Assembly: GCA_051294905.1 (NCBI GenBank)
Contig: CM119372.1
Span: 11,844,001 to 11,908,000, forward strand
From: Botryllus schlosseri
Lineage: Eukaryota
Direction of reading: 5' to 3'
Length of the DNA: 64,000 nucleotides
This document shows positions 94 through 53,283 of this stretch, piece after piece. The notes below the pieces were generated by a model, which had not been told where the DNA came from, made no database searches, and was given only the letters and a program-made list of their open reading frames with translations. The position numbers and the translations under genes are program-made. Numbering within the stretch: the stretch's first letter is position 1; each line of letters opens with the position of its first letter.

Positions 94-3000
94 TTCAACT
101 ACCAAAAATCCGCTAAGAAGAATCTCGGAGATGTGCATTACAATGTGACGTTGACCGAAGCGTACAAAGACCTGAAAGACAAGGAAAAACTATCTGACGT
201 ATGACGATATTTCACATCCAGCACAACGAGATTAAAATTCACACTCCGTTTTTGCAGCATGCATACAAAGAACATCCGTCGAAGGTTTTGTTCACGCAAA
301 TCGCAGACGCTCCGGACGTCAAACACGCGAAGGCGGTGCAAGCGTTGACGAGTTACTCGTTCTACAAAAATGCAGCGAAGAAAATGATGGATAAGTACAA
401 CTTGACCATCGACGACCAGCACACAACGCATGCATTGCTTGCCAGTAAGGTAAGTGACCGTGAATACTTCAATTTTTCTGAAATATCACTTTTTATAAGT
501 TTCTTTATTTGACGGAGGAAATTTTCGAATTGACAGAGTGCATTTAAAAAAAATTCTTGAGCCTTGCATTATTGGAGTTCTGTTAGAATACAAAAATAAA
601 TAAAAATCATCGGTATCAGTTTATTAATATTTTCATCGTATCATAACATCACAAGACTGTAACACAATGAAAATATAGGGTCAAAGTTGTTTCAATACAG
701 TGTTCTAGATTTGTGAGTGCAAAACAACTTTCCACTTTGTATCTTTCAATACCTAATTAAACAACCCGGCGGTTTATAAAATGAAATAATTTTTCGAAGC
801 TCTTCTCCGGTGTCAACTACAAGAGCGATTATGACAAGAACGTCAAAGGAACAATGCTGGCAAAAACAATGGAAAGCTATCCAGAGCATCAGAACGCCAT
901 GAAAGCTTCGAAGAATCTAAGTCAGGTAAGTTGCTGGAATCATGAAGATAAGATTATATTTATGTTGAATGCTCTTGAATATTTGCATGACAACTAACGG
1001 AATAACATCTCAGGTGGAATACCAGAAAATGGCCGACGAGTTGAAACACTTCTACTCTCTTCCCGTTGACATGCCGTCAATCACTCACGCCAGGCAGGTC
1101 GCTGAAATGCAAAGCAATGTAAGTATGGTGGTAAGCTGTAAAAATCCTGTCGTAATGAACCTTGTGTTTAGATAAACTATGTGAAATCGCGCAAAGAAGT
1201 CATTGACGGGTTTCGAGGATTTCAGACCATGGACAGCAAAACACATCCCGTCGTGCAGCGGGGAATTAAAGCGGCTGATTTGATTTCCGAGGTTGGTAAT
1301 ATTGTGGATGTCGCCAGCAAGTTCTTGGTGCTTAGTGCTCGAGAGTGTCTTCTTCACTTTTCTGTTGTACAAGACTTTTAATAGATTTGCATTTCTTCTA
1401 TATGGGGCTAGTGATGTAGCTGCTGTAGGAATGAATATGGTTTCAAAGTAACATTTTTTACCTCATCCCATGGTAACCTTGAACATTTTTGGAGTTCCAC
1501 ATAGATAAAATGTTTCTAGGAACAATTGTATGGCTCATTGTTTCAAGTATCCTTTCAACTTTAGCACTTAGCTCTCACTAATATTTCATCATGCGCAGGA
1601 TATTTCACACCAAACATAGAAACTGATGTCATTTTGTATTCTCAGCGCAAATACAAGGAGGAATATTTGGCCGATCGAAATCTAATCTACTATCCAGTCC
1701 ATCTCACTCCGGGATACGAGGCTTCCACGAGTGCTAGCAAATTTGCCAGTGATGTAAGAAAATATGTGCGGCACACTCATACATGTAATATTAAGCTCTG
1801 TAATACAGGCTGATTACAAGAAATCGTACAGAAGCGAACTGTCAAACTATCACAACTTTCCGGCAGAGCAGACTCCGACGTACAAATCCGCTAAAGAACA
1901 CGATGAATTAACTAATGAAGTCGGTATTTGTATTTCTGCAAAGTCAAGCAAGCGTCAGTAATGTCAATGCCATTCTTGTTTAGAAACGATACAGGCAGAA
2001 GAACGAGCATTTCAGCCAAGTGCCGGATATGAATGAAACTAGAGTACTGAAAGAAGTGCAGCCGCTAATAAGTCAGGTAAACTGTCTTGTATAAAGCGGA
2101 AGAAGCCAAATCATAAAACAATCACACTACTATGTGATATACAAGCTATAGTGCTATTTTGCAATAGTCGGTAGCCATAGAGACCAAACAAATCAAGGTG
2201 GATTCATTCCATGCACAATTTCCATGGAACTTGACTCACACTGGCCTCTGAATACTCTTTTTATGGATTCTTATTTTACTCTATTTGTAACTGTCCTCGT
2301 ATATTTCAGTTCGAGAGCAAATGATCAAATCATTACAATAGGAGCATTGCATCGGGAAAAGTTGTGATTTGGGGCAAATTGTTGTTCTGGCTACCTATTT
2401 CTCTACGCCATTTTGCAGTATATTTTGGTTCAGTATCTGTATTTATTATTCATGCTCATGCATACCCAATACATTTTTGCAGAAAAATTACAAAGAGAAG
2501 GCGAAGGAATTGCTGGGAAAATATCACCTGACGGCAGAGATTCCAGAAATTGCTCATGCGTTATACGTCACTGATATTCTCTCACCGGTAAAACACACAT
2601 TGTCAATTTGTTTTTCGCTAATTCACCGTTACCGCTTACCATTGTCAGATCAACTACCATTCAAAATACGCCAAGGATTTGAAAGGTAAACCTGCACGAG
2701 GATTGGAAAAATCGGAATACTTTGCTCAAATCAAGAAAGCCACAGAACTGACGAGCGATGTAAGCCGTAATCTCTGTTGCTTGCACGGGTGTCAACGTTA
2801 ACCTTTGAGAATTACAGAAATCCTACGTGAATGACGCGAAACGGTCTATGAACGATTACACGTTGGATGGCAATTTACCTTCGATCGAGCAAGCCCAGAT
2901 TGCGTCGAGGCAGTACAGTGATGTATGTGTAGTGTGAGCAAACTATAACGGAGCACGTCTCGACGATTTTTTTCTTACAGATTTTGTACAAGAAAGGCGC

Positions 3001-6000
3001 AAATGAAGACAGAGAGAAAGGATCTCATTATCATAAAATGACAGCAAAGGAAGTGCCTTCGTATGAAAAAGCGCTTCAAAACGCTTCCAATCTCAGCGAC
3101 GTAAAATATCCTTTCCCGATACGATTCTCATTTGCTCGCTCCGTGACATGCATTCTAATTGCAGACCAAGTACAAGGAGGAATACAATGATATCAAAAAG
3201 TATGTATACTTTCCCTACCACATCACCCCACAGTATGAAAAGTACATGGAAGTTAGCAAGCTTATTGCTGGGGTAAGACGCCATGAGTTCAGTGTATAAT
3301 ACGTCACTGCAAGTAACAAGGATGAAATGGTAATTTAGAGCGAATACACGAAAGACATGAAGAGCAATCTGAAGCAGCTCAACTACGACTACACAACTGT
3401 GCCAGGATACCTGCATCAAAAGGCTTTATCTGATGTTATTAGCTCGGTAAGTAGGTTCTGGGAAAAGTCTGTAATATTTCATGAAGATTTGTATTTTGAT
3501 TTTGTCTTCACTCCGTCACTAGTAGATTCAATAGAGTCAGTGTCATCTAGTCTAATTTTATATTCAGCATAAAGACAAGGCCATCCTGCACGAACTGCAT
3601 ACAAAAGGATTTACCCCGATCGCAGACGATGTCTATCAAAGTCATGCTCTTGAAGCCCAGAAAAGAGTTGGTAATGTGAGTATAATTCCGATTGATACAA
3701 AGTAAATTGGGATTCGAATATAATCTCAAGATATGTGTACCATTAAGAATTTGTACAAGCTCGCGGCCAGAAAAGTCATGGATCAATATCACATTGACGG
3801 CGAACTTCCAGAAATCAAAATGGCAGAATTCGCATCGAAGCTGTCCAGCCAAGTGAGTGTTCAGTGTTTGTAGATATACATGCAGATATGTAGAAAAATA
3901 ACTGTTTTATCTGTGCTTCAGCGTGTCTACAAAGCCGATTTTGAAAAAGCGAAAGGCACCGCGGGCAAGCTTGGATTGGACATGCCAATGTTTGAACTGG
4001 CGAAGCGTGTCAAGGATTATTCTAGCGAGGTGACTGATCCACAGTGTCAATACTTTGTTATTTCACGTATTTACTGCACGAGTCGATATGTAGATTGTCA
4101 GGCCCCTATTTTAATATTGATCTTAATTTAGCGGTAGCTTGGTACCTAACGTCACAATTAATTCAGATCACTGCTAAAACATCCATTCCACTTCCAAGTC
4201 TTGTCAGATTTTTTCAAGTATGTCGGATCGATTTACTGTTGGCATGGTGCTCAGCCTGCGTGTTGGGCTGTGTCCTTAAATCAACTAATTACAACCCGGC
4301 ATACAGTGATTTAAACACTAGTAAATAGATATGTATTTTTCCTTTTACTTGATACAGCGCAATTTCTTTGTGCACTGCTACACCAATAATTATGCGAATT
4401 TTGATCACTTGTAAGAATGTCTATGAGATATCTGTGGCGTTGATATTTTCAATGCCACTTATTTTGAAGCAAAATTCAGAACCCAGTGCCGTTACAGTTA
4501 TTTGGCGGTCGCGTTACCTAAGTAATAGGACCTTGTGATAGCAGTTTCAATTCAACATGCGCTTTTTTGTACAGACCGCTTACAAACAGAAAGCAGAGGA
4601 AGAAAAACATTTTTTCACCGTATTCCCTGACAGGCCGGACATCGTACATGCAAAAGAAGTGGATAAAAATATTAGTAATGTGAGTTAATCTTATGTTAAT
4701 TATTATCTAGCACCTGTAAGGAGTCATTTTTGCTCGTTCTTAACACTACATTGGACAACATGCTCTTGCAGATTCTCTATAAGCAGAAGGGTAAAGAGCA
4801 ATCGGCCACGTGTCAAGGTTACCAGCGTTTGAAAGCGCTCGACCACCGCGATGTGGCGCACGCTATCAAGGTTGCAGACCTGATTTCGGACTCAAAATAC
4901 AAGGAAGAATACAACGAGCTGCGGAATATCATTTATTTCCCTGTGCATTTGACAACAGGGTATGATAACTTCTATAATGCTGTTATTTCCTGTTGTGAGA
5001 CCAAATTCTGTGATTTCGTGTGAAATGTGACCTCTAGAATAGAAGCATCAGCGTATTTGAATAGAGCCGCCCTCTTCATTCGTGTTTATTCATTTTCAGA
5101 TACGAGACCGCCGTAAATGCCAATAAATACGCGTCCGATGCGACCTATAAAGCAAAATGGAAAGCCGACAGATTCATGAACTCATTCAAAGTCAATGAAA
5201 CCGAAGCTTACAAACACGACCGCTCTATGCATGAAAAAATCAGCGACGTATGTATCGTACAGTAGCATTAACCGGTAAAATGAAGCTTGTATGTACTTAC
5301 TGTCACATCTTCCTAGATTGCATACAAGGCCAAGTACCGGGCTGATGTCGGAAAATGTCCCTACATCACTGAGACTCCAGCGCTATCTCATCACAAAGAC
5401 ATGAAGTCACTGTTCAGCGAGGTATGGGCATGAGCAATAGATCGATTCTCTAGTTACAAACTGAATTAAAGTTGTGATTGGCCAGTAAGGATGTCTACAT
5501 GTTTCCAAGTTAATTTGGGTTCCAACGGGACATTTATGACAGGAATATGAAATGACAATGACTACTCGATACAATAGAGTCTGTAACGTCATTGCAATGG
5601 TAACAATACGCTATTATATTTGAGATCTCAAAACATCCATGAAGTTGAAATTAGGTAATGAAATGGAGTTAATTCAATGCAAAAATTAGTGACATTCATA
5701 GGTTGAAGAATTTGGCTTTAACTGCACTAATGAATCATAACAGATTAATGAGGTTTGCATATGACAAATTTGAAGTTACACTAATCAATTTTCCATCTTA
5801 GAATGCATACAGAAGTGACGCCAAAAGTATTATGGACAAATATAACCTTGTCAGCGACGAGCCCAGAATAAAACAAGCATTGCATGCTACCGCTTTGGCA
5901 AGTGAGGTGAGCACGCTCATGAATGGAAACTGCAATGTCATGAACAACTATATTTGCAAATCTTCTCTGTCCAGAAAATATACAGATATGCGTACGACAT

Positions 6001-9000
6001 GCTTAAAGGGCAAGGTGCTGTCAACATTCACGAAACTCCGTTGATGAAACAGCAGCTGTTAGCGACGTCGTTACGCGATGACGTAATGCCTTTCTCATTG
6101 GACATAAATTATTTCCTTCACAATACCTATTCGATTTAGAAACCGTACAGATCTACTGCCCGTAAATTGCTTGAAACTGTCCGCATCCCAGAAGACACAA
6201 GCGAAATCAAACACGCGACTTCGGTAGGCAAACTTGTCAGCGATGTAAGTTCAAGTGTATTTCTCTGTCGTTATAATGATTTTGAAAACGGCGGCTTGAT
6301 TTATTTAGCTGGTGTACAAGGCTGAAGGTGGCAAAAATGACCTTCACGGTTACAAGAAGTTGCAGATAAAGCAAGACTTCACGCAAAATCATTTGGAAAA
6401 ACAGAGAGATATCCATTCCGAGGTTCCGAAATTAAAGCCCGTTGCCATGAGCGTGTGCCATTTGACTATGCAGCTCGTGATTTGGATTGGATGGTCATTA
6501 TGTGCAAGTGCATGCATGCATCGATACAGGTTGCGTTACGGATGATGGTTTGGAAACCTTTGCAAGGCGGAACCAAGAAAAAAAAGATCATACCCTTCGA
6601 TTATGAGCATTGCGATGGAGTTGTGATGGGAATGGCACCACCCCCTTCTGGCTAAGGCCCTGTGTGTCGGGATTAAAATTTTGCATTCACCTTGATTTTG
6701 TTTTGCAGTGACCGAGTGGAAAGCATCATTTGCATCTGTCTCTCTCTTTCTGTCTGACTTCTATATTTGACATATCCGGCTTGTTTTCGTTGGCTTTGGC
6801 TAGTTTAGGTGTAGTGTGAGGAGAGGTGCCGATACATGTGTCTTGTATAGGTAAACTACAAAAAGGAATTCGAGGAGCAGAAAGGCCATAACATACCTGT
6901 TGCGGAGACGCCGGATACTGTGCGCGTGAAGAATCAACAGAAATTCCTGAGTGATGTAAGACCATATTCTACTTTAAAGTGTATGGCTATGTCTAAAGCA
7001 TTTGCCGGGTATTTTAATGCCTTGAATATCACCGTAGCTTTTTTTTCATTTTTAAATGTTGCAAATGCTCGTAACTATTGACGACATGTTCAATTTTGTA
7101 GAGAATTCTACGTCAATTCTATGCTCCAATTTATCCTTGCTTCTTTTCTTCCACAGTGTCTTTTTTTCCATTTTGTTCAACGTTGCAAATTTTCATAATT
7201 ATTGATGACATATTTGTTCGTTGGCGAATATTGTATGCCATTTCTGTGCTTTAAATGATTCAGTTTTCTCGCTGCGTATTCAGTGCAATTCGTGCCTTCA
7301 AGTTTGTGATATATTTTCAAGGCGGTTTATAAAAAAGACGTGGAAAAAGAAATTAAGGGGCACGGCCTCACCACCGACAGTACCCCTCAGATAGTCCATG
7401 CCAAACATGCTACCGAAATCCAAAGTGAGGTAATTCACACATGGATTGAGCATGCTGTGTTTCATTGGATGTGGTTTTTCTTAATTTTTGAGATTTTGAT
7501 TGCGCGAATCTTTCATTTTGTCAAATCACAATTTTGAGTGCTTTTTACGGTTTTTCATTTGTAATGATGAGTGATATTTTGTGATCATTGCAAGCATGAC
7601 TTTGAAATTGAAGAAACTGCATGGACGACTTGGACAATAGATCACCCGAGGTAAGACATATGATAGTGTGTGTGTGGATCCTAATAGGACAGACTCCTCT
7701 ACAATCACCATAAACCAGTTTCAATTTCACTATGCCTTTTTATCCCTAAAATATTCATGGTGACAGCATGCATGATATCCTATTAATGCATCTCTGAAAG
7801 AAATGAATGTTTGAGAACTGGGTCGAATATGTTGGGCTTTTGTAGACGTTAAAACACATGCTTTTCCCAGCAAAAATACAAGACTGGCCTGGAAGATATC
7901 AGCCAATGGAAAAGCGGAGAAGCACTAAACACTCCTATCGCTCGAAAAGTCACCCAAAATAAAGACCTCTACAGTCAGGTATTGAAGTTTGTACACAAAG
8001 CATTCCATTTTACCATACCGTTTGTCCACTCTGATAGCACAAATACAGAGAAGCGTACGACAATTTGAAAGGATCGGGATGTGACGTGGTAACCCCGGCG
8101 ATGGCTTTTGCGCAAGACGTCTCGAAAGTATGGCACGAATTGATATCACCTATACGAGTGACACTATTCTTATGTGACTCTGTATTATTCTAGCTTACAA
8201 GCGAAAATAAATACAAAGAGCTGTATAATGAGACGAAGGGAAACTCTTGCTTCAGCACAATGGATTCGACCCCTCAAACGGAGCATGCGCGGGAAGTCGA
8301 AGCAAAAATCAGTGATGTTTGTATCGGTTTTAGTATTGGCATATTATAATAGATGGTGATCAAAAATGAATTATTTCCACCTTACATGAGTGCATGTAAA
8401 ATAGGACCGTTCAAATTTTCCAAATTTCAGTTGCACTAGAATTAACAATTATCAAGTGCCTAAAAAAACGCTGCACACCAGATTTGTTCAATTCCAACCT
8501 GTAGCCGCAGAATAACTCCAACGTGAAATTTCAACCATTTTATGAAATAATAGTATTTGAAGAGCTTCTTGGTGAGCTTCTTGTGTGCCTTGGAATCAAC
8601 TTTTATCAAAATACACCAACCAAAACTCTGTCAACAAAAGGAGTTCGTGTATCACCTAAAAATAGTACATTGAACGCTCTCTCATTCGAAATTTCATGCT
8701 GGTGACGTCATATTTTGTGATACGATTGTTGATATACAATGTTCTTTCCAATTCTCTACTAGTTGCTGACGATTACCCCTGACAAGTGTCAGCCGAAAAT
8801 ATTCGGGTTCATTTCAATATGAATATACTATTTAATTGAAATAATAGTATTTATATTTTCAAATTTTACTTCACCATGACAATGATGCTTTTTTTCAAGC
8901 GTTGCCATCTGAAGATTTCATCTGTGATAGAGTTTGGATAAAGACATAGCTAATTCACGAAAAACAAATTAACACACTGTTTATCTGGAAATTAATCAAC

Positions 9001-12000
9001 TTAATGAAAACAACAGTGATATAGTCGACATATAATATATTTTATACCACTGAAATTGGCGACCACACAAAGCAAATGAGCTGAGAAACAGATATAATAC
9101 AAGTAAAGTTTTTAACACCCCTCCTAGTCTACAATTTACTTACGTAAAGGAAGGTGATTTAGATTTATGCTACTTCCGTGCTACTGTTACCCGACAAGCC
9201 GTTTATACAGCAATGTTTGCAAGATAGCATATAACACTCAAAAGGTTAACCATAATACTTACAACGTCCGAACAAAACTTTCTCAGTAATAACGACAAGC
9301 TTTTTACGTCACTAATATTCAGATATCTTCTATATTTTGTGTGCCTCTTCTACTAGAAGTTAAGAAAGGGTTTATCGGGTCGACTTTGATGAACAATTTA
9401 ACACCGTTGATTGCATAACTCAGATCAAGTACCGGGAGCAACACCAACAGGAAGACGTCGGAAAATCGTCCGAACTCAATAATTCCGTTCTCATCAACGC
9501 CAACCTAAAAGCGACAGATTTGCAAAGCAACGTATGCAAGTACACAAATACCGTTTGTGCCGAATTGTCTAAAACGCCTTGCTTTATGACAGCTGAAGTA
9601 CGCCAAGCAATTGGCAGAAGCCATCGAGCAGTACAAAGGATATTTCCAGAATATCATAGACACGCCTTCGATCAAGCACGTGCAAAAGGTGTGTGCTTTT
9701 CTTTGTGTGCCCCTTGACCACTCCGGTCAAACCCGGTTCAAAATTTTTTGTCTTTAGGTTCGAGACTTGCTGAGCGAAGCGAAATATCGTGAGGATTACG
9801 AGAACGAAAAATCGGTCATCTACTTTCCATACATCGTCACGCCGGAATATGTGTCGCGGAAAAAAGCCAGTGAGCTGCTCAGCAATGTATGGCGAAACTG
9901 ATCCGATTGGATGCGGCCGTTTTAACGTGGGCTTGTTTTGTTAGAACGTTTATAAAAGCAAGGCCGAGACGGAAAAGTCACATTTCACACTTCCGGTGGA
10001 CATGCCAAGTCTTGTTCATGCGAAGGAAGCCAACGAAATACTATCAGACGTGAGTTGCAACAGATTGGATTGTAATTGGCACGATTACTATTGTATTAGA
10101 CACAATTTTGAATAGCACCTGTGTCAATGAGTTTCTATTCTTCATATGTACTAGAATACTCATACATTCATTTGTTTAATATTTTCATCAGTTTGAAACA
10201 CCACAAGATTGTGATAAAATAACTTGCAGTAGTCTTTTATTCAGACCTTGCCCTAGAACATATATAAAAGTCAAAATGATATTTTTTTGTGTGTGAAACT
10301 TTATTGTGAGGAAGTAAGTATGCGCGATTACTACACCCGTACAAATTTGTTCCAATTATGTGTTGTGTTTTCAATTTTTTAGATTCCAGTCGTTACTATG
10401 TTATTTCGTATTACACCGGTACACACGTTTCTGTTTTGTAATGTTCTGTCACCAGGTTGGCAATCGCTTTGATCATGAACTAATGGTGGATGTTAGATTG
10501 ATAGACCGTATTTGGTCATTTGGACATCCTATCTATTCATTGCGTCTTGAGAGAATGGAAATGATATAGCCGCTGATTATGATTATTTTTATGCACGTAA
10601 CAACACCTAATGGAGCATTGTTCCGATTAGATCAACTACAAAAAAGCTTACGACATGGAAAAGGGTAAAGCAGTAACAATCACAGGAATGGCCGATCTCC
10701 CAGAGCTGCTGCACGCGAAGAAAATGCAGACTCTCTTCAGCGATCAGAACTACAAGTCAAAAAGTAAAAAGATCCGTGACAAATACCATTTGGACGTCGC
10801 CACTCCACAGATTCTCAATGCAAAACGGGCCAACGACCTTGCCAGCAAGGTATATATTGATATTAGTGCATTTGTTAGGGTGCAGAGCTTTGATATGTAT
10901 TTCAATAATAATTTCATATTGAAAATAGATGAAAACTAGAAGCTTTAATATAACTGCACTACTTACAACCAATTAAGATGTCACAAAAAAATATATGTTA
11001 TGTACAGTCGAACCGAGAGCACAACTACGGACCGATTTTCAGCTTGAACTAGAATTCCATCCGCTAACACTAGGGTTACCATATTTTGGAATCGAGAAAG
11101 GGGGACACAAATCATAAAAGTCGGTTGACAGAAATTGAAAACAGCTGATTTTGTAATATTTACTGGAAAACATGGTCTGTTGACTAAAAAAAAAACTTTC
11201 ATTCACTTTCATTTCACTTTCATTCCACTCCCGAACGACCCGCTCGAACGTCGGTGTCACCTATTTCACGTCATTTATGACGATTTTCACTTGACTCTGT
11301 CCATTATCCTAGCTGTAAAAGCTGTAAAGAATTGCCAAAAAAGAAGGACATTTAGGCGTCCTCCGAGGATATTTTCAATTTCCTTAATAAGGAGGACCAA
11401 TCCTCTTAAAGGACGACGTATGGTAACCCTACCTAACACAGACGGGGTTGGCCCTCTCTGTTTGCCTGTGTTTTGTGTTGCATTTGTTTCTTTTGATGCA
11501 TTTTCAAAACGAGTATATCATTAAATGTATATTAGCGTGTTGCATTACGGAAATAGTGAATCCTTGTTTTCTTTTATCAGAATCTTTACAAGGAGGCGTA
11601 CAAGAGGGACAAGGGTCAACCGTACGATGTCAGCGACTCGGTAGAAATGAATCACCTCAAGAAATTGCCAGATCAGACCAGTGATGTAAGGTGGAAATAT
11701 TGTGCTTTGCAATGTATAGAAACTTGATCGTTAGATTAGTATCGTGATGAAATATTTTAGTCTACACATTACGATATGTATTTACGATTTGTTCAGATAA
11801 AGTACAAGCAAGACTTGATCTTGTCAAGAGGCAAAGTCATTCAAGTTCCGGATACTCCTTGGATTCTATCATTTCGGCAAGTTCAGGATTATGTTAGCAA
11901 CGTAAGTCCGATTATGTTTTGATCTCGCGCTGCCATACTTGTAGTAACGTTGATTTTTCGCGAGAGCAGTGGTGTTACACTCTTGAGTTGGCAATCTTGA

Positions 12001-15000
12001 GTTGCTCGAACTATTCGAGACTAATCGACATCTCTATCAAATTCAAGAGTAGGGAAATTATATTTATGAAAAGTGCATGTTTCAAAGAAACATTGTGACG
12101 ACACTAGCATATCTCCGTGGCACAGATTGAAATTTCAAATATGCCAGCTCTTCGTATGTTTGCGTAGAACAATTACGGAAAGAAGCGTTGGGATTTGAAA
12201 AGTCGATACCAACCCGACAAGTTCAACGCGCATATCAAAAAGGTGACCGACAATATCAGCGATCTGAGGTCAGTAAACCGCCCATTTTACCCCCCACGTT
12301 ATCACACTGATATCACCGCTATTTCAGGTACAAAGAAGACTTTGATGAGTATTTCAAAGGAAATCTCATTCCAATCCCTGACCACCCGTTGGTATTGAAG
12401 GCGTTGCGTAATTCCGACCTTATCAGCAAGGTGACTTACTATGATAAATTATCATCGATGTTAACGTCTTGAAAATCGACAATCGGCATTTAGAAAAAGT
12501 ATAAAGACAAAGCGGTCAAGGACCACCAGCATTATATATTCGTTCCGGACACGCCGCAATACAAAGCCATACGAGATGCCGCTAAATATCTCAGCGATAT
12601 CACCTACAAGGAAGAAGGGGAGAAGACCAGAAACCAGTTCACATTGCCCGCGGACTTGCCGGTATTCAAGCACGCGAAAGATGCTCAATTGCTCACCAGT
12701 GATGTAAACAGATTGTTTCTCTAAAATTACTGTCAACGGTACTCATATTGCGATTCCATATCAGACCGCGTACAGCAAAGACGCAAAAGCAAAAATGTCT
12801 ACTGAATACATTATACCACCCGAAGGCACATCGACAATGCGTCATCATAAACTTGCATCCGCTCTTGCTAGCGATGTCGATTACAAAGAAAAAGGTGGGC
12901 CCATTATTTCTCCATATATATGAGTCTATGTGAGGTAACTAAGTACTATAGCATATGAAGGTAGTGACATTTTACTCACCACTACCTGAAATCTTTAAAA
13001 TTTGTGTTGTTGCAAGTGGAAAGAGAAATTGAAGGTGTGATAAGTACTCAAGTAATTACCTCTGGTTAAACCTCATTCCACACGAATTTACTGCTGTTAC
13101 CGCCCCAGTTGTTATAAAATCCCCATTCAGGCAAGTAACGGTTATTACATTTACAATTTTAGCGGAAGAAATGAAGCATTTGCCACGAGCTTATAGCACA
13201 CTTCAAGAAACGAGAGACACAAAGCATGCGAAAGAAATTGGCAGGCTACAGAGCAATGTGAGTGTCTGATGTCATTCTGACAGTAGTATGCTTTTGTCTC
13301 AGGTTATGTCCCTATAACGCTATCGATTACATACAAAAATCGAATCCATTTAGATTAGCTACAAATCTTCTGCAAAGAAAGGATTGCAGCACATCCACCC
13401 TTCAGCTGAAACGCCCTGGCTTCAGCAAGCCAAAGAGGCCAACGATAATGTCAGCGAGGTAAGTAATTCCTGCAGAATTAAGAGAGAATATATATTATAT
13501 TACACTCTTGGAAGTGGTAATGTCACACTGAACGAATAGCAGCAGCTAAGGGAATTTATCAGAGAGATATCAGTAAAATTTCTAATGCAAATAGCTGTCT
13601 GCACAATAATAATAATAGTTGGAACACAAGTATTTATTGCAGTCACATCTATTTGTTGTTGGAACATATCCAGTATACCACATTAATTCGAATAACATAG
13701 TCCAGACAAGTAATGTAATGCCTGTTTTATGTCATGTGTAATACCGGCAGTCTGTCAAGACACTCGAGTCTCACACCTTCACTGCTTACTATTCCAGACT
13801 AAGTACAAAGCCAAAGACAAAGATCTGATACACAGTTACAAAATGAAGGATGGCGAAGACCGCTTCATAAAGCACGCCTTGGAGGTTAGAAGCGTACTGT
13901 TATATGTTGAATTTGGCTCGCAACCGTGCAATGAATTTAGGTTCGAGATAAAGTCAGCAGTGTGAAGTATAAGGAAAAGTACTTAGAGGACGTCGGAATA
14001 TGCTGGTGCCTGCCGACGGACAGGAATACCGATCATGCAAAACGGGCAAATGAACTCGCCAGTTCTGTAAGTCTTATTTCGATGACAATTGTCACCCCAT
14101 ATGCGATTAAAGGCTGTTTAACTTACATATCGAGAGATATGTTCTAGAAATTAGGGTCAGCAAAAGAATCGTTTGTGGTTATCTATGAATTGCACTTTTC
14201 TGTCTGTACGTGACTGTGCAATGTGCATATCAATATCTCTGAGATTGCTGTATTTACCTACTGAAAGCACACCGAGCGGCATTCTCATGCGAAAAGAAGC
14301 ACCGCCAACAATATTCTCACTGACTACTGCTTTTTAGAATGAATACAAGCGTAAAGCCCAACAACTGAAAGGGAAATACCACATCACGACTGACACTCCG
14401 GAATTTGAAAGGCTGCGCAAGCTTCGAAGCGAATTGAGCGAGGTAAATTCGATCCTGTCAAGCCAGGAAAAGTTGATGATACAATTATCCATGCCATATC
14501 CGTTTATAGAGTCAGTACCGAGATGAAGTGAAAAAATTCACAATATTGGCCGCGACTCCTGAACTGCAACATGCCACGAAAGTGTCTTCGTTAGTAAGCA
14601 AGGTAACATGACAAGAAATTATTCATTAGGATAGCTGAGGAAGCATTTGAAAGTGTGTCCAAGCGCTGATATTTTACCATGAACTATCATCATTGACCTG
14701 AATACACAGTATATTATTACATTTTCAGACTATTTACAAATTTGACATTGTCACTCCCTTTGTTGTGCCGTAACCCGACACTTGTCACAGAATTAAACCG
14801 CAAAGAACATTGCTACCTGAAATTATTTACTGTATGGAGTGTTTAAGCAAGACCAGCATTGAAACGATTGACTTTATCACGACGAGTGTGAAGTGTTTTT
14901 TGATGTCACTATGTCGCAATGTTTGGAAATGACTGAATTTATTTGAAAAATCTTGATTCCATCTACAGAACAAATACAAGGAAACTCACGAGAAGGAAAA

Positions 15001-18000
15001 GGGAAAATACATATTGTTGAAAGATGACCCGAAGATTGCCCACGACCAGCAAGTCAACAAACAGTGCAGTGAGGTATGACGGATTCAATCAGTAGGAAAA
15101 GTAGTCACCTCGTTTTATTTCTATGTGAATCCCTAGATCTCCTACAAAAAAGATTTGGAAAAAATGAGGAAAGACGGCTTCACCTTTTTGCCGGACGCTC
15201 CCGATTTGGAACATCAGAAAAAAGTTCAAAAGAATGTCAGCAAGGTAGGCGGAACGGGGAACATGCCTACATTTGACAATAGCAGGGAACACCACCCGAA
15301 TCGACTCCGAGCATTACAAACATCTAGATTCAGTTGACATTTGCTAGCCAATTTCTCTTATGTGCTTTGCTGAATATGATCATTGACTATGTTTGGCCAG
15401 AAGTGGATACAACAAGGTGATACTATTAGCAAGTACTTCACGGTGATACTACTATTTGACCGCCTTTGGTCTTACCCTATTTGAAGAGATAATCTGTAGA
15501 TATTATTGTCAAATGACATGAGTTATTCCTTGTAAAAGGTCGAATACGAACGGGAAGGCAAAGAACAGAATAACTTTACGGTCCTCGAAGACTCTCCCGA
15601 TGTAAAACACGCCGTGGAGACGGCAAAGATGCAAAGCAACGTAAGAAATCAGATCTCAAAGTTCAGAACCGATAAGTCATATCTGACAGCCTACACATTT
15701 CGCAGGTCAACTACAGACAGAAGCCTCAAGGCAAAGACATCGCACTGCTCGAAACGCCGCACATGCAACACGTCATGAACGCCAACAATTTGCAGAGCGA
15801 CGTAAGTTTCTTTTACTTTAATAGTACTTTTTCGTCATTCTGACATTGTCTCGTTGCAGTTAAAATATAGAGAAGCGCACGCCAATCGACAGAAAGCAAA
15901 GGGCTGGCGCTTTACCGCTGACACCCCGACGCAAAGGCACGTTCAAGAGATCGGTAAAGTTCAGAGTGATGTAAGTACTTTGTAGAGTCACACTTCTCCT
16001 AGTTTAGTATCCACAATTGTAGTTGGCAAGAGGCGGCTTTCCTATGTTATTTACTTATACATTTACCTTGGAATTTAAATCTGCAGCGCCTGTCGAGTAG
16101 GATCGTCCAGTATTCTTATGATCCGGATAGGTGGTTATTTTTATCTTTCCTTCATAAAGGTAACACTGTTCCGGGCCTACCCTATCGATACTAAATCGAG
16201 AGTGGAGTATTTTTGTTCAAAGAAGTCACCACAAACCTAAGTCCCATGAATCTCTTGTTATATGACAGCAAGAGACTCATTAGTGCAGCGTCGATTTGAT
16301 GAATTCAATAAGGAAATTAAATTAGTCTTTCATGGATGTATGGTATGAAAATAATGTTTCTATATTTTGATTTATATTTCATATCTTCGTCACTTTGTCT
16401 TCAATCGTGTGAAATTAGTTTTTCGATAGTTTTTAAATTTCTTTCTAATAATATAACGCTATTCGAATAAGATATGGCTGTAGAAATTTCAAAGTATGAG
16501 GTTCGTTTGGCAAAATTATTTGCTATGGTCAGTCTTGGAAATCCATTGGTCCGTAAGCTCATTACGCTTTTCGAAAGGCATTCATTGACAAAAAAGTGTT
16601 GTGAATCACCAATTTCGAGAAAGCATGTTTCAAAGATGCGTTGATAGAGATATACATATCACATGATTGCAATCATTTTGCAGTACAAATACCGGAAAAA
16701 CTACAGAGAAAACGTCGGCAAGGGATTTACCACCATCACGGACAGACCAGATATCATGCACGCCACCAGTATGAAGGAGATGGTCAGCGATGTGAGTACA
16801 ATGCCTCGGTGTGGTGCGCTCAAAAATGCGAGTGTGAATTTGCATTTGCTGTAGAACGAGTACAAGCGTCAACATCGGGATATGGTCGGGAAGGGATACA
16901 CTTTCGTAGCCGATAATCCTACGATAACTCACGCCGAAGAAGCGAACATACTGCAGAGTGATGTAAATATTTCAATTCTTATCATTAGAGATGGGCGATG
17001 GCGATAAGCAAATCATCATGAATACTCGCATTGTATATGTGTGTATAGCCAGCGGACAACGGACAACACACCAGCAATGGTGCAGAAATGACAAAGTTCT
17101 CATTCTATGATTCCGAATCAGTTTGAAACTACCTGCCAACTAACTACGGCCGATAACTTTCCCTCAAATAGTTCAAACCGTTCCGCAATCCTGTTCAGGT
17201 GCAGTACAAGAAAGAATACGGCAAGTCCAAAGGCAAAGGCTGGCAGACGGAAGACTCGCAAATACACGGTCACTGCAAAGAAGCGCAAAAGCTAGTCGGA
17301 AACGTACGGCACGCCGGATGTAAAAGCATTGGCTTTACTCACCCGATAACAATCTCCTCCTTGACAGGTCGACTACAGGAAAAACGCGCAAGCCTTGAAC
17401 TCCAGAGGAACAAGCGCGTTCCTGGAGTTAACGCCGTCCGAGCTGCATCACAAACGGGCCGCCGAAATCCTTGACAGCAAACGATACAAGAGCGATTATG
17501 AGAAGAATGTCCGTGGCCGCGGCATGATGATGGACATGTCCAACACACCGAGTATGGATCACATAAGACATGCCGAGGATATCAAAAGCGATGTAAGGCG
17601 TTCCTTTTAGTTTAAGTAACGGTGGTTTAACGATTCCCGTTTTTTTGGCCGGTTAAGGTACGGTACAAGTCCAATTACCAGCAAAATATTCTTGGCAAGG
17701 CTGTCAATTCAGTCGCGGACGCTCCTGACATACTGCAAGCGAGACAGGCGTCTCACATCGCAAGCGACGTAAGTGTTAAAGTAAATAATACAATTCACTC
17801 TAGGCCAGTGGGTCTCAACCTTTTTTACCCGCGGACTCATCTCAAGCTCGCCAGTATACCCGCGGACTCAAGCTATATATTACTGAAAAATATATTCTTT
17901 TTTCTATCCAAGAGAGTGTAATACGGTATCAACAAAAAAATGAGCTAAAATTGAGTCAAGGGAGCTTTCTTAAATCTGTCTTTCCACATCTGTCGGCTTT

Positions 18001-21000
18001 GCAATTCAAGCAACTATTCAGTAATGCAGTCCACATCTCGAGTTCCACTTATATCAGACAACTATAGATTGTTTCTGTGATTAGCACATGTCCCTACGAT
18101 TTGTAATTTTCCAAATAGTCTATAAGTGAACAAGTCGCCATAATCAATTACCAGCACTCAGCGTATATCGCGCCGGAAACCTGTGCAATGTGCTTACGTG
18201 CATGACTTTAACAGCACTTCGTCACCCCCCCTCAATAACAAAACGTTGGTCTTGGGCCACACAGGCCATAAACCTAACTTCTGGTGGGCTTTACCCCCAG
18301 ACCCCCCCCCCCCCCCTTCCGATACCTTTTTACCGCCACTTCTCGGCGAAATTTTTGTACCGTTCATTCAGTCGTTTTGTTTTGAATAAACCGCGCGAGG
18401 CGCGAAAATATTCCATAATTCATGATTGAATCGGTCAACATGATCGGGGTCGCATCTATATATATATAGCTGTAAATTTTTTATACTATCTCTGCTCATG
18501 CATTCAGATTTATCGGTCGAGCTGAGTGAGACGTTTCGGAATTCGATATAATTATATAATTTTTCTAAAAAGTTGCATAAATTTTCAAAAAACACTCTAT
18601 AATTTATGTTAATTCACGAATAGTTTTGGCCCCCCCTTCGAGGTTCCCCCTCAATTATGGGGGTTTGGTGTACGGCAGTTACGGTCCCGCATACGTGTGT
18701 ATAAAGAGCTGTTCCAGGGGTTTATACCTGGCATATTCTGTATGTGAATCGGTAATAGTGAACACGCAGCATTAAATTCCGAGTCCATTTGTACTAAATT
18801 CAAGTCAATCCGACCAAAATCGTAGAGTTTATGACCGTGATAGAATTGCTTATGACAATTTTAGCAATAGGGTACCTCGAACATAAATGTAGGGCATTTT
18901 GAAAAATTCCAGTTGGTAATAATAGGGGTTTTATACCTGGCGTGATTGGTATCAAACCAGGATGATGCGACAGATGTGCAAAGCATACCCGATTTGCCTG
19001 TGATACTTGCAACCAACTGGTTTGCCCAAGACACAGAAAATCTCAGGAGAACCAATAATTCTTGGAATGCTGATCAATTTGTAGTGGTGCTGTTTCGTTG
19101 TTCTTGCGTTTGAAATATACGTAGCCAAACATCGCTTATTGAGGTATCTCTAATATTGCTTTCAAAACTACATTCACTGCAGTATAATTTATTAACTTGC
19201 AGGAATTTCGTATGCCCCTTATCAACAAGAGGTAACAGCACAATAAGAAGCATATAGAAAGAGATTCAAACAAAATCCAAATTGGCAAAATATGACGTAA
19301 CAATGCAATGATAAAAAGGAACGGTAGCTGGCCAAAGTCAACTGTACCGGTACTCCGGTAGTCATAATAAAGGGATAATAGAGAATCAAATCATACAATA
19401 CTCAGTAGACGTTACACAGACAATCAGCGGAATATATTAATGGAATATTGAAAGATTGTATACAAACTCTTTATCCTTTTTATGGTGCCGTTAATTCTTG
19501 ATAAGGGAAACCCGAAAAGTCACCGAGGTAATAAATTCTACTGCAATGAATGTAGTTCTGAAAGCACTATTGAAGTTGAGTGCCGCCAGTCACATATTTG
19601 AGGTATCTATGCATTTTTATGATAGCTATTAAGGTTACTAACATTTCAAAATAGGTATTTTGCAAATCACTCAGCCTAATTCTCAAATCGGAATTTGACG
19701 AAACCGGACTGGGACGGGGCTCATTCACTTTCGGACCAAAAAGCTATTTTCTCCGTAAGGCTGCAATGACTTTGGTCCGAAAGTGAACGAGCCCCGTAGG
19801 TCTGTCAATTACATGTTCCGAAATCATATCGGAAGTGGAAGAAAAAGTGTGTCGAGCCGATTAAGTTACTGAAAATTACTGTGTTCGCGGACTCACCAAG
19901 GACCTTCCGCGGACTGAAATGAGTCCGCGGACTCGGGGTTGAGAAACACTGCTCTAGGCTTTGAAGATGTTGCAAAAGTGAGACTTGTAGCTTGTGGTAG
20001 AGATGCGCGTTCTTATTAAAATGTAAGCCCATTAAGATAGAGACTGAGGCCAAGTCATAGGCTTTCTGGCCGTGGCAAGGCCACCCGTCATCTGATCAAG
20101 AATTGGAATACCGGACTAAATGCGATGGCGACATTTATCAATGAACTTGTGTGTCATACTACACGTAGCAACCCCGAATGGTTTCAGTAAAACACCACAA
20201 GGAAATTCTGATAATTGTAAAATTATTGGGTCAGATCATGTCAGGTGATACAGGCCATATTTCCACCATCTTGGATTGTCATGAAGATAGGCTGCCTTAG
20301 AGAGCTGTGTTTTCTGATTTCAGAAAATGAAATTTCATCAAAAAAGGTCATCTTGAACCGAAGCTATGACCGTCCAAAAATTGCTATTTTTGTGATCGCT
20401 CAAGCAGAAAAAATATCAGAAATTTATACATGTAGTTTAAATTTGCTATATTTCGGTCAAATTAGGGTTGTTGAGAGTGACACTTACACACTTGTTCATT
20501 TATATCCTGCTTGATACTTTTTCGATTTCTTCGACACTTGGAGTTGCATAGTCTGACCTTTAACCTTGTGATTTTGTTCATGTCTTTGAAAATCACTCAC
20601 GCGTGACTTCATTTTCAATTGCAGATATCTCTTGGTGACTAGGTGATGTCATCAAGTGTAAGGTATCATTGGCAAGAGCTTTTAAAAACAAAAATAACAT
20701 TAGTTACTTTTGAATCGTAACATACCATAAGAGCGCCATGAAGCTAGCTTGCAAATTTATTCAAAATCCTCCCCCTTTTCAACAAGAGCAGTTGAAAAAG
20801 TTGTGAAATTTTATGAAAACAACGAACATAGCAGGTTGATGCCAGGGATGAAAGACCGAGTTAGCATTAAATAGAATGTGTATCAACAAAAACGTCTACT
20901 TTTATGTACTCTGAAAGAATTCCATACCCTGTATAAACAGCAAAACCCGGATGCAAAAATTGGATTCACAAAATTTTGTGAATTGAGGCCGAAATGGTGT

Positions 21001-24000
21001 GTTAGTGCAGGATCATCTGGAACACATGCCGTATGTGTCTGTACCATAGATCAAAATGTTGTTCTTTTGCTGCATGCTGCCCGCATTGAAGAAACTTATA
21101 AAGGTTTGCTTCAATTGGCAGTCTGCAATATTGAAAATAGAGACTGCATGCTACAGCGTTGCCCAAACTCTCCCGGATTTCACCCGTTCAGGAATTGCTT
21201 GACTCAAAATTTGAGGATGAGGATGAACCTATTTCGTTCAAACAGTGGGTGTCAGTTGACCGAACTGATCTAATAACTCAAACCTTAACCATAACTGAAT
21301 TTATTCAGTTGATATTAAAAAAGCTTGCAGATTTAGCACCACATCATCACATTTCGCATTCACAGTCTTTATATTTGAAAAAACGAAAACAAGATATGAA
21401 TCAGCAAACAGCTCTTGTATTGATGGATTTTGCGGAAAATTATTCTTTCCAAATTCAAGATGAAGCGCAAGGGTATCATTGGACTCACCAATGCTGCACT
21501 GTGCACCCGGTAGTTTGCTACTACAAGTCTGCAAGCAACGATATTTTGCATTTAAATCTATGCTTTTTATCGGAAGAGTTGTTGCACGATGCAGTAATGG
21601 TGTATCTGATTCAGCGAAAGACAATTGAAATTCTCAAAAGTACAATTCACAACTTGGACAATGTGGAATATTTTAGCGATGGTTGCGCTGCCCAGTACAA
21701 AAACAGAAAATCATTTTACAATTTGTGCAAGCACAAAGCTGACTTCGAAGTGGATGCTGCGTGGTCCTTTTTTGCCACGAGCCATGGTAAATTGCCATGT
21801 GATGGCATTGGTGGCACTGTAAAACGAGCTACAGCAATGGAAAGTCTGAGGCGCCCACTGAATGGTCAGCTTTTGAATGTGGAAGAAATGATGTCCTATT
21901 GCGTGAAAAATATCCAGAAAATAAAATTTAATAATTTGCTCAAAGACGAATTGGATGCTACGAGAGCTTTTTTGGAACAGCGATTTCGGCTCGCTACCAC
22001 AGTCAAAGGTACTCGGGCATTCCATCATTTTAGGCCATTGTTATCAACCAAACTGGGAGCAAAACGTGTTAGTCAAGACAAACACTATGTATTGGAAGTT
22101 GAATTAGATGAAGACTCAAACCAAGAAAATGTACTTCAAATTGAAATTATCAAAAACAAATTTGTATGCTGCGTTTATGATGAAAACTGGTATATTGGCA
22201 TGGTCACAGAAATTGACAAGCCAAACAACGATGCCTTAGTTGAATTCATGCACCCAAAAGGCCCATCAGAGTTTTTTCACTGGCCTCAAAATAAAGATCT
22301 TGCTGGACACCGTTCCAGCACATTTTGTGCACAGTTGACGTTCCTTGTTTATTTAATAATCGGGGACAATACCACCTGACAAAGGAATCAGCACTGAAAG
22401 TCATACAAGTTTGGAAGAAATATCATCAAAGATAAATAGATATCTGATATGAGCAAATAGTTATTATCTAATAGTATGAAAACTAATGAACCCGCAGGAC
22501 CTTATATTGATTTTGATTGTCATTGTTCCTTTCATTGTTTAGTGCTGATCGTTGCCCGAATGTATTGTGTAGAGTACATAAAACATCGCATCTTATCCTG
22601 TCAGTTGTGAATTCTGAAGTGTTGTGGAAGTATTGTGTGTCACCTCAAACGGTGTAGCAAAATTTTCTCAAATTTTCAAAAATATCTCAAATTATTGTCA
22701 GCATAATTTATGTCAGCAATTATCTGTCTGAGTTATACTGACTACCTTATGTATAAAACACTTGGCACGGTACTGTATATAGAATAAAGGTGGTATGAGT
22801 TGCTTTACCGAGTTTGCTCTTGTTGAAAAGGGGGAGGATTTTGAATAAATTTGCAAGCTAGCTTCATGGCGCTCTTATGGTATGTTACGATTCAAAAGTA
22901 ACTAATGTTATTTTTGTTTTTAAAAGCTCTTGTCAAGAGCTTTCCAATGATACCTTACACTTGATGACATCACCTGGTCACCAAGAGATATTTGCAATCG
23001 AAAATGAAGTCACGCATGAGTGATTTTCGAATACATGAACAAAAAAGTGAGGTTAAAGGTCAGACTATGCAACCCCAGGTGTCAAAGAAGGCGAAAAAGT
23101 GTCAAGCAGGACTTAAATGAACAAATGTGAAAGTGTTACCTTCAACAACCCTAATTTGAACGAATTGTAGCAAATTCAAATTACATGTATAAATTTCTGA
23201 CATTTTTTCCGCTTGAGTGATCACAAAAACAGCAATTTTTAAACGGCCATATCTTCGGTTCTACTCATCCGATTTCGATGGAATTTATTTTTTTGAAAGC
23301 AGAAGTAAAAGTTTTCTAACCATGCCAATTTTAATGACAATCTGAGATGGTGGAGGTACATTTTGAAATTTTTCTGGATCACCTGACATGATCTGACCCT
23401 ATTGTCAAAAATATTTATTTGCAAAGTTAGCATATTTCTGGTTTGACACTTGGCGCGCCTCAGCTTAGTTTAATTAAACGTACTAGACTACCGTAATTTA
23501 AATTGGAAACCCAATCCGCGGGCCGCCCACCATTAAAAGTTGATATTTCTTCACTGTCCTCAAAAGTTTTCTCTATTGGCCGCATTTGGTACGCTCCCGG
23601 CGATTGCAATTACGTTCTTAGCAATTTTCTCCCTAACAAATCGCCAATATCATAATAATGAAATAATCCTGGCGATTAATACACAAATCGACATTGCAGA
23701 ATAAATACAAAGCGGATTACCGCAACAACATACTGGGAAAGACTAACTCCATCGCGCTGACCCCAGAGATGGAGCGAATGCAGGCGGCGCAAAAGTTTGT
23801 GTCTCAAGTAGGTCGAATCGAAGTGTGCGTCGATACAAGGGGGAACAACAGTCGTGCTCGCTCCTATTTACAGAAACATTACAAGAATAACAACGGCGAG
23901 AACCGGTCGCAGTATTCCACTCCTATTCTCGACACACCGGAGTGGCGGATGATCAAGCAAAACTCGAAAAACTTCAGCAAGGTAGCTTGCGGAAATTTTG

Positions 24001-30000: not shown

Positions 30001-30108
30001 AACGTCATCAATGCCCAACGTATCGACGACGGATGGATGTTCGGCACGGTGGAAAGAACAGGGCAAAGCGGAATGCTGCCTTCAAACTATGTACAAATGG
30101 TCCAGTAG
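94..30108 (+). CDS. NEB: Nebulin-family giant actin-binding protein, multi-exon, 5' end outside window
   Basis: About 60 GT-AG exons, most ~100-120 nt and phase 0, each encoding one ~35-aa module split at S-D|xxYK, e.g. 94-198 FNYQKSAKK...KLSD, 1646-1753 [24 protein letters not shown]...ASD, 3165-3272, and from 25546 [21 protein letters not shown]. Linker exon ~26679-26854 has [13 protein letters not shown] (nebulin/nebulette linker motif). Acidic exon 29120-29260. Terminal SH3 exon, stop at 30106-30108. About 67 modules counted, far more than nebulette or Lasp. Confidence 0.93.
8402..8560. mobile_element. Truncated single arm related to the fold-back MITE family
   Basis: Starts taggaccgttcaaa and contains caccagatttgttcaattccaacctgtag and aaataatagtattt, resembling the arms of the elements at 42351 and 45556. 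No partner arm seen. Confidence 0.45.
11071..11431. mobile_element. hAT-type MITE in nebulin intron
   Basis: TIR TAGGGTTACCATA...TATGGTAACCCTA; 8-bp TSD gctaacac/cctaacac (1 mismatch). Confidence 0.85.
17806..19951. mobile_element. Non-autonomous hAT (Charlie-like) element with nested insertions
   Basis: TIR CAGTGGGTCTCAACC...GGTTGAGAAACACTG; perfect 8-bp TSD CTCTAGGC (17798-17805, 19952-19959); subterminal cgcggactc motifs. Contains a copy (~18209-18688) of the family seen at 55882 and a small inverted-repeat element at ~19713-19797. Confidence 0.9.
20228..23399 (+). mobile_element. Degenerate Sola2-like DNA transposon with very long TIRs
   Basis: Ends GGGTCAGATCATGTCAGGTGAT / ATCACCTGACATGATCTGACCC; 4-bp TSD TATT on both sides; TIRs ~20228-20790 and ~22815-23399; internal transposase. 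GRG termini, 4-bp AT-rich TSD and long TIRs are Sola2 traits as I recall them; family assignment not checked by search. Confidence 0.8.
20785..22435 (+). pseudogene. Disrupted DDD-type transposase (Sola2-like)
   Basis: Motifs [76 protein letters not shown]. In-frame TAG at 20872-20874, frameshifts near 21170 and 22300 (continues [10 protein letters not shown]), N-terminus missing. Confidence 0.85.
24841..25255. mobile_element. MITE with ~90-bp TIRs
   Basis: GGGTCCATCAAACCACTAGGTGTTGCCAGACTTTAGGTGGTAACCGCC... mirrored at ~25165-25255. Flanked by TA on both sides (TSD or part of TIR). Superfamily unresolved. Confidence 0.8.
26003..26532. mobile_element. hAT-type MITE with GACTCGAGTC subterminal arrays
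   Basis: TAGGGTTGTAA...TTACAACCCTG; TSD cactctaa/cactcaaa. Same family inverted at 43241-43696; partial copies at ~31000-31091 and ~60685-61068. Confidence 0.85.
27221..27860. mobile_element. Old hAT-type MITE (agtagaagtagt family) with tandemly duplicated right end
   Basis: CAGAGGT...CACCTCCA, TSD gtcgctat/gtcactat; 150-bp segment 27559-27708 repeated at 27709-27860. Related fragments at ~28586-29030, 33240-33360 and 41100-41350. Confidence 0.7.
29932..30108 (+). CDS. NEB: Last exon of nebulin gene: C-terminal SH3 domain
   Basis: Acceptor ttcacag, then [58 protein letters not shown], a nebulin/Lasp-type SH3 (ALYDY, GWM, GMLPxNYV). Confidence 0.95.

Positions 30109-51963: not shown

Positions 51964-53283
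<1,320 letters not shown>

Follow-up and report, generated by a model that had tools for sequence, protein, structure and literature searches.

A seven-module nebulin super-repeat in the tunicate Botryllus schlosseri, probably sharing its origin with that of vertebrates under a different signature motif

Is the seven-module super-repeat of nebulin, whose hallmark in vertebrates is the motif WLKGIGW, a vertebrate property, or does it go back to the ancestor that vertebrates share with tunicates? The question is raised by a 64,000-nucleotide stretch of the Botryllus schlosseri genome (the window), positions 11,844,001-11,908,000 of contig 2 (C2) in an assembly of 495.5 Mb, for which a first-pass annotation made from the letters alone had proposed a seven-module nebulin period with a non-vertebrate signature. 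Analysed together with 100 kb of upstream DNA, the window in all likelihood holds the 3′ part of a single giant tunicate nebulin gene, at least 60 kb long and on the + strand. Its super-repeat classes align in order with those of four vertebrate nebulins, and on the strength of these sequence comparisons the two super-repeats very probably share a common origin, the signature having changed. The seven-module super-repeat would accordingly date at least to the tunicate-vertebrate common ancestor, with its register kept and its hallmark motif different.

The first 30 kb of the window display on the + strand a series of short exons with AG/GT borders, mostly of 105-108 nucleotides and in phase 0, each of which encodes one module of about 35 amino acids that starts ..Y-K and ends ..S-D/E. 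A hidden Markov model (HMM) of the nebulin module, made from 20 such exons and then iterated, gave 85 matches at E < 0.01, spread between about -29,500 and +25,650, and 108 at E < 0.1 after iteration, every one of them on the + strand. The gene is thus already under way where the window starts, inside super-repeat 14 of 17. It was modelled by chaining exons from splice sites and codon usage, followed by a second pass favouring likeness to the repeat unit and by the replacement of 14 exon entries by hand, which yielded 146 exons and 5936 amino acids (the last exon not counted), cut into 160 modules. At the far end, an open frame at 29653-30105 closes with an SH3 domain at its residues 96-148 (PF14604, 57.3 bits; PF00018, 54.0 bits) and a stop codon, which sets the 3′ end of the gene at about window position 30100.

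Within this model, modules 5-123 consist of seven classes in a fixed order, repeated 17 times without the gain or loss of a single one of the 119 modules. The classes are c1 (36 amino acids, signature ..K..IYYPVHITPGYE), c2 (36, N.Y.VT.T..YK), c3 (35, TPEM...K.L.P), c4 (35, KYNL...QEIAHAL), c5 (38, AYPEYEH), c6 (35, HNLPLDYPEF) and c7 (40, YRGFQTMD), and the unit measures 250-256 amino acids in all 17 copies, whose mutual identity is 45-65% among the central units and 23-36% among those at the ends. The array begins about 27.5 kb before the window and ends at window position 6422, so that the window carries its last 3.9 units together with a weak echo at 9593-10849. The first-pass annotation had estimated about five units and numbered the modules from the first exon; the model replaces the former figure with 17, 13 of them upstream, and renders the latter arbitrary, the annotation's module n being module n+96 here.

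The periodicity was assessed by all-against-all module alignment scores set against shuffled module orders. Over the whole array the lag-7 mean was 70.1 as opposed to 23.7 +/- 1.6 in shuffled orders (z = 29), with lags 14 and 21 as high as lag 7 and the remaining lags at 18-23. The lag-7 peak that had been proposed as a check for the region annotated at first, modules 97-136 (window 94-11901), was likewise found: a mean of 33.7 against 22.3 +/- 2.35, which corresponds to z = 4.9 and was reached by none of 2000 shuffles, with lags 14 and 21 also raised (39.8 and 31.3) and the others at 15.8-24.5. No lag-7 signal was present in modules 124-160 (z = 1.3). A further measure was provided by seven class HMMs trained on modules 5-95 only, all of which lie upstream of the window, with one in seven expected by chance. 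The class that the register demands was assigned to 18 of the 27 modules at 94-6422, to four of the 13 at 6851-11901 (c7-, c1-, c3- and c4-like at 9593, 9779, 10631 and 10745, which are modules 34, 35, 37 and 38 of the earlier numbering) and, about as by chance, to three of the 24 beyond 11901. The array proper therefore stops at 6422, the end of module 27 in the earlier numbering, with one echo after it; the same figures bear out both the poor fit of module 28 and the fading of the period at about module 39 that had been remarked on.

The motifs on which the seven-module period was first recognised hold as well. The four YYP/YFP motifs start at 1682, 3201, 4928 and 9815, in the modules beginning at 1646, 3165, 4892 and 9779; the long modules with an aromatic core (6, 13, 20, 27 and 34) are the exons 1172-1291, 2981-3100, 4772-4891, 6309-6422 and 9593-9688; and the modules sharing [KQ]Y[NH][LI] (3, 10, 17, 24 and 38) belong to class c4. 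The reported absence of WLKGIGW extends to the entire model, with no match in 5936 amino acids, nor does W.[KR]G.GW or W.KG.GW occur anywhere in it.

Parts of the model can be compared with assembled contigs of sequencing runs X1 and X3, presumed to be RNA since their contigs skip introns at model exon borders. Two of these (X1 record 4 and X3 record 15) position the segments 10631-10848, 12492-12703 and 17368-17592 at spacings of 414 and 1584 nucleotides, which the sums of the model exons match exactly (414 from 10849 to 12494, 1584 from 12703 to 17368). An X3 contig piece covering 4772-4958 backs the unusual donor at 4959, and the X3 contig end after 449 carries on with the start of the exon at 800. 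For 6422 the donor was picked by hand, and it agrees with a gap-free alignment to the nebulin of another ascidian, Phallusia mammillata. The raw-read RNA run X23, with depths of 0-2.6 outside intronic repeat bins, added no information, and the exons after 23981 are uncertain.

That the modules are nebulin repeats is evident from matches to PF00880 (Nebulin repeat) in the window, of which single exons show only part (9/36 above the cut-off, 14/36 at E <= 0.1) because the Pfam model straddles the module junctions. Over the 160 modules, tyrosine occupies position 3 in 159 and lysine or arginine position 4 in 108; serine is second-last in 146, and the ending is S-D or S-E in 83. A profile of the c7 module run against 1.84 billion representative proteins retrieved 103 at E <= 0.001, and in the long proteins among them the seven classes recur in identical order. 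One of the ten that were looked up is a Ciona intestinalis fragment (UniRef H2XXK9) with the same class motifs. Judged by length and by the names of those ten, no vertebrate nebulin is among the 103, and the c7 class profile alone apparently fails to reach vertebrate nebulins. A two-module exon used as query against proteins of 129-2000 amino acids gave no score for any of 11 candidates. The search from one of the c7-profile matches led to Phallusia mammillata Nebulin (4779 amino acids, UniRef A0A6F9DLF8) and to a nebulin-like protein of eel.

The Botryllus model and the Phallusia protein are 50.9-51.3% identical over about 4,550-4,600 aligned positions, with one gap of 15 amino acids or more between model residues 1344-5927 (50.9% identity) and their counterpart. 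The region of the first-pass annotation (1435 amino acids) aligns with Phallusia residues 2196-3636 at 48.9% identity and with no gap of more than 4 amino acids; therefore, the number of modules there is conserved between the two species. Both proteins have a C-terminal SH3 domain (for Phallusia, from its Pfam list), the seven classes in the same order and post-array modules in one-to-one correspondence. Botryllus has 17 super-repeats; in Phallusia 12 are called, with the class order 1234567 and 81 of their 84 modules called as expected. The order is also kept in four unnamed proteins only 29-37% identical to the Botryllus model, and the seven-class unit is therefore retained across deep divergence. 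Variant signatures (..AWQTMD, ..GYQTMD and IYYPV.ITEGYE) were seen in the long unnamed proteins P0001, P0002, P0003, P0004 and P0114. With the eel protein, identity falls to 22.7% over 4904 aligned positions (E = 1.9e-171).

Another family member with seven-module super-repeats is N-RAP, which has an N-terminal LIM domain and no SH3. The Botryllus gene resembles it in its nebulin repeats and super-repeats and differs by ending in SH3. None of the 81 LIM matches listed for the genome falls within C2:11.74-11.91 Mb, where an intron-split LIM could escape, and a regular-expression scan of the upstream frames found none either. Given the SH3 domain and the lack of a nearby LIM among the matches listed, an identity as N-RAP was rejected. 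The only other PF00880 match above the cut-off in a six-frame scan of the genome, at C6:13858607-13861687 (32.6 bits), may be a separate LASP gene.

How, then, does the Botryllus unit stand to that of vertebrates? The nebulins of eel (nebulin-like X10), mouse lemur (X4), the turtle Gopherus (X23) and milkfish were segmented as the Botryllus protein was. The WLKGIGW module was taken as position a and the following ones as b-g, and shift 0 denotes the register in which c1 pairs with a and so on to c7 with g. Profile and HMM comparisons were used instead of module-class trees, which are weak for modules of 35 amino acids. Modules with K-G-x-G-W recur at every seventh place in lemur and turtle and likewise in milkfish, where two are unmatched by the pattern; for eel, the seven-module period was read off the module list.

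Shift 0 came out ahead by each measure. Mean pairwise scores amounted to 18.7, as compared with 13.0-16.0 for the other six shifts, which is rank 65 among 5040 permutations of the classes. In hhalign comparisons, the class sums against eel were 139.6 at shift 0 and at most 119.2 elsewhere (rank 177 of 5040). With profiles of five tunicate-type proteins they were 148.9 and at most 128.9 (rank 91), or 212.2 and at most 192.2 against eel modules 4-108 (rank 47). The same five-protein profiles scored 190.3 (rank 57) against lemur and 193.1 (rank 37) against turtle, with other registers at 165.8 at most, and the Botryllus gene alone scored 195.4 against lemur, with at most 163.1 for other registers (rank 22). 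After centring, all seven diagonal terms were positive in each of the lemur, turtle and gene-alone-against-lemur comparisons. The hmmscan of eel modules 4-108 on the Botryllus class HMMs gave a centred sum of 12.7 as opposed to at most 5.3 (rank 58). A doubled super-repeat HMM was also allowed to align freely in hmmsearch. Among the 25 best domain alignments (129-168 bits over 406-454 HMM positions), 24 adopted shift 0, the sole exception sitting beyond the vertebrate array, and the share of shift 0 in the total bits was 1722/2910 in lemur, 1822/2851 in turtle, 1090/1702 in eel and 1676/2282 in milkfish. Global alignment of whole rotated super-repeats (hhalign -glob) was discarded as a measure, because rotations 1, 2 and 6 slid back to register 0 and did not give true scores for other registers.

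Two further features point to the same register. The single 38-amino-acid module takes the fifth position in both arrays, as c5 and as e. In vertebrates, modules 4 and 11 (in lemur also 18) stand in the WLKGIGW phase without having the motif and carry FYPYNDSPE or CYFPQTIT.EYE; on the c1 HMM those of eel reach 16.3 and 26.6 bits, and lemur, turtle and milkfish have similar motifs. The c1 signature, taken in the first-pass annotation for non-vertebrate, is consequently not so in the strict sense, since similar FYP/YFP...EYE motifs are found in these modules of all four species. In the hhalign profile alignment of c1 with a, three residues of ..K..IYYP, namely K, P and the last aromatic one, are matched to their counterparts in LKGIGW.P.

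Vertebrate and Botryllus nebulin thus have in common modules of about 35 amino acids with a ..S-D/E-x-x-Y-K junction, the seven-module super-repeat with its classes in corresponding order and the C-terminal SH3 domain. They differ in overall sequence (about 23% identity), in the motif of the first position (WLKGIGW in the one, ..K..IYYPVHITPGYE in the same phase in the other), in the seventh module (40 amino acids in Botryllus and 31 in vertebrates) and in a unit of about 255 rather than about 243 amino acids; 17 units in Botryllus compare with 22 (lemur) and 23 (turtle) period-7 modules of the WLKGIGW type. WLKGIGW defines vertebrate nebulin and not the family as annotated in ascidians.

A number of points weigh against a common origin and the register on which it is built. 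The gene model is self-built and contains choices made by hand, the RNA contigs check only part of it, and one junction upstream of the window uses a weak donor (score -5.9). Should exons have been picked to fit a seven-module expectation, the register would be an artefact, and it is true that some of the 14 replaced entries followed the pattern of other units; yet the first model, based purely on splice sites and codon usage, already had the classes in order, the spliced contigs equal the model exon sums and the independently annotated Phallusia protein is collinear, which leaves this explanation highly improbable. On the side of the comparison itself, raw class scores mostly reflect generic modules, with row maxima on the diagonal for only two of the seven classes (c3 and c5) in the gene-against-lemur matrix, and the register emerges only after centring or summing. 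The permutation ranks are moderate (22-274 of 5040); for eel modules 18-80, where the rank is 274, shift 4 follows close behind (11.3 as against 13.0). The four vertebrate sequences are orthologues and amount to roughly one trial under several scoring schemes. The motif that defines the vertebrate protein is absent, and the central WLKGIGW modules of eel score best on the c7 rather than the c1 HMM in six of nine units, at about 8-10 bits. Together with hhalign probabilities of 3-25% for the single pairs c1/a, c2/b, c4/d and c7/g, these last observations would suit convergence, whereby a seven-module unit arose separately in tunicates under the seven-actin period and resembles that of vertebrates through chance and generic module likeness. 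Such an origin would, however, have to account for shift 0 being the best whichever scoring scheme and whichever of the tested vertebrates is taken, for the coinciding position of the 38-amino-acid module and for c1-like motifs in the WLKGIGW phase of vertebrate modules 4, 11 and 18, and it is considered improbable. Of the two origins that the first-pass annotation had left side by side, a pre-vertebrate super-repeat with a changed signature is upheld by the one-to-one alignment of the classes in order, and an independent one is disfavoured by the same tests.

Common origin granted, the period might still be no more than a footprint, lag 7 recording the copying of seven-module blocks without present selection on length. 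Block duplication predicts that central units should resemble each other more closely than terminal ones, as they do (45-65% against 23-36%), and the smaller number of units in Phallusia (12 against 17) is in keeping with it. Yet the old units, down to 23% identity, are all 250-256 amino acids long with no module change over 119, the order of classes persists at identities of only 29-37%, and the region first annotated has no insertion or deletion of more than 4 amino acids relative to Phallusia at 49% identity. Duplication alone is likewise considered improbable. Selection on unit length is favoured instead because the 250-256 amino acids are kept even at 23% identity and because no such insertion or deletion above 4 amino acids separates Botryllus from Phallusia.

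What such selection might serve can be approached through mouse nebulin. In a mouse study, one simple repeat is assigned to each actin subunit, and WLKGIGW is placed next to the troponin T (TnT) linker, where repeat 3 ends (bioRxiv 10.1101/2021.10.06.463400); an older proposal has the motif bind tropomyosin (PMC4126377). The Botryllus genome encodes troponin (PF00992, two loci) and tropomyosin genes. Gene structure, periodicity, orthology and register are what the sequence shows of Botryllus nebulin; that it binds actin and troponin, or acts as a ruler or stabiliser, is an inference. In the muscle thin filament, each module of about 35 amino acids, usually one exon, is predicted to follow a single actin subunit; seven modules (about 255 amino acids) would cover the seven actins of one tropomyosin-troponin unit, and the 17 units would lie along 119 actin subunits. 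Class c1 (..K..IYYPVHITPGYE), standing in the phase of vertebrate WLKGIGW, is the putative docking site that would recur once per seven actins.

Taken further, the c1 motif could be the ancestral TnT-linker docking site, used once per seven actins, which vertebrates would have kept only in their first, pointed-end super-repeats (modules 4, 11 and 18) and replaced by WLKGIGW in the centre, and the whole 35-kb block of super-repeats could be an optional cassette that is skipped in a short LASP/nebulette-like product. This combined reading is put forward tentatively and is rather doubtful as a whole; if true, tunicate nebulin would show the original way of reading the tropomyosin-troponin period. 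Independently of it, the Botryllus protein offers a natural variant for probing the once-per-unit motif, in which the proposed troponin T contact WLKGIGW is matched by another motif in the same phase.

The skipping of the array is seen in one contig. This contig, from run X3, ends just before 6851 with 26 letters, 23 of which match exactly the end of an exon 28.4 kb upstream (L005:1543-1565); it joins the upstream exon L005:1461-1565 to 6851 and leaves out all 17 super-repeats, about 35 kb. That exon and the one before it encode LASP-type repeats, none of which is found in the Phallusia nebulin sequence. By its appearance the contig represents a nebulette/LASP-like short product of the nebulin gene, and in being a short product from one locus it resembles nebulette/LASP-2. 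An X1 contig is spliced up to 6309 and then unspliced to 6827, through the last long module and on for 400 bases of the next intron; either the intron is retained or the transcript has an alternative 3′ end immediately behind the array.

For the specialist, this result is one to be expected more than a surprise, the orthologue already being named Nebulin and the amphioxus and Ciona genes being published. By their titles, Nishikawa et al. 2019 (Ciona; Gene 716:144036) and Hanashima et al. 2009 (amphioxus; Gene 443:76) reportedly describe single nebulin genes that give several transcripts. A class-by-class register against vertebrates was met with in no publication in the literature searched, in which the Ciona and amphioxus papers are represented by title only. 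Those titles are carried by the reference list of PMC12198301. According to a 2012 survey, reports of nebulin repeats beyond the LASP class had been confined to vertebrates and Branchiostoma (PMC3305314).

The part of the array that lies in the window, all on the + strand, begins with the last six modules (c2-c7) of super-repeat 14 at 94-1291, encoded by the exons 94-198, 258-449 (two modules), 800-925, 1014-1118 and 1172-1291; all six are given the expected class by the upstream HMMs, and the missing c1 of super-repeat 14 sits 178-285 bases before the window begins. Super-repeat 15 (1646-3100; four of seven modules in the expected class, c1 at 69.4 bits) has seven single-module exons: 1646-1753 (c1, YYP), 1809-1919, 1984-2076, 2483-2587, 2649-2759, 2818-2922 and 2981-3100 (the long c7). 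Super-repeat 16 (3165-4891, again four of seven) comprises 3165-3272 (c1, YFP), 3339-3434, 3568-3675, 3748-3852, 3922-4029, 4575-4679 and, as its c7, the first 40 codons of 4772-4959. The last, super-repeat 17 (4892-6422, four of seven), has its c1 split by the intron 4960-5099 and continues with 5140-5247, 5317-5421, 5802-5906, 5975-6082, 6140-6244 and 6309-6422, a degenerate long c7.

Beyond 6422 there follow about 40 simple repeats and then the SH3 domain, on the same strand. The seven post-array modules (28-34 of the earlier numbering) extend over 6851-9778, with the exons 6851-6955, 7322-7429, 7871-7978, 8038-8127, 8194-8316, 9424-9531, 9593-9688 and the start of 9758-9886; they are collinear with Phallusia nebulin, and one of the seven, the last, is in the expected class (c7-like, 25.8 bits). 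The echo of the super-repeat at 9779-10849 is in register for c1 (41.4 bits), c3 (24.3) and c4 (21.7), and consists of a c1-like module with YFP at 9779-9886, a c6-like module at 9945-10049 and c3-like plus c4-like modules at 10631-10849; the c6-like module is out of order, scoring 35.3 bits for c6 at the place of c2. Simple repeats without lag-7 periodicity occupy 11581-25729 (exons 11581-11685 to 25546-25729), and the last coding exon, 29938-30105, encodes the C-terminal SH3 domain directly before the stop codon.

Several introns of the gene (about 8580-8840 and parts of 10670-12000 and 17340-20000) show very high summed contig depth in four runs and many rearranged joints, the depth in the intron bin 8672-9338, for instance, reaching 18,045 in X1 and exceeding 1.1 million in X15. 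These stretches are high-copy repeats and probably transposable elements. Further downstream, on the minus strand, window positions 51964-53283 hold an open frame of 438-439 amino acids with a match to PF12265 (histone-binding RBBP4/CAF1C N-terminal domain, 106 bits) and WD40 repeats, which looks like an intronless RBBP4/7-like gene.

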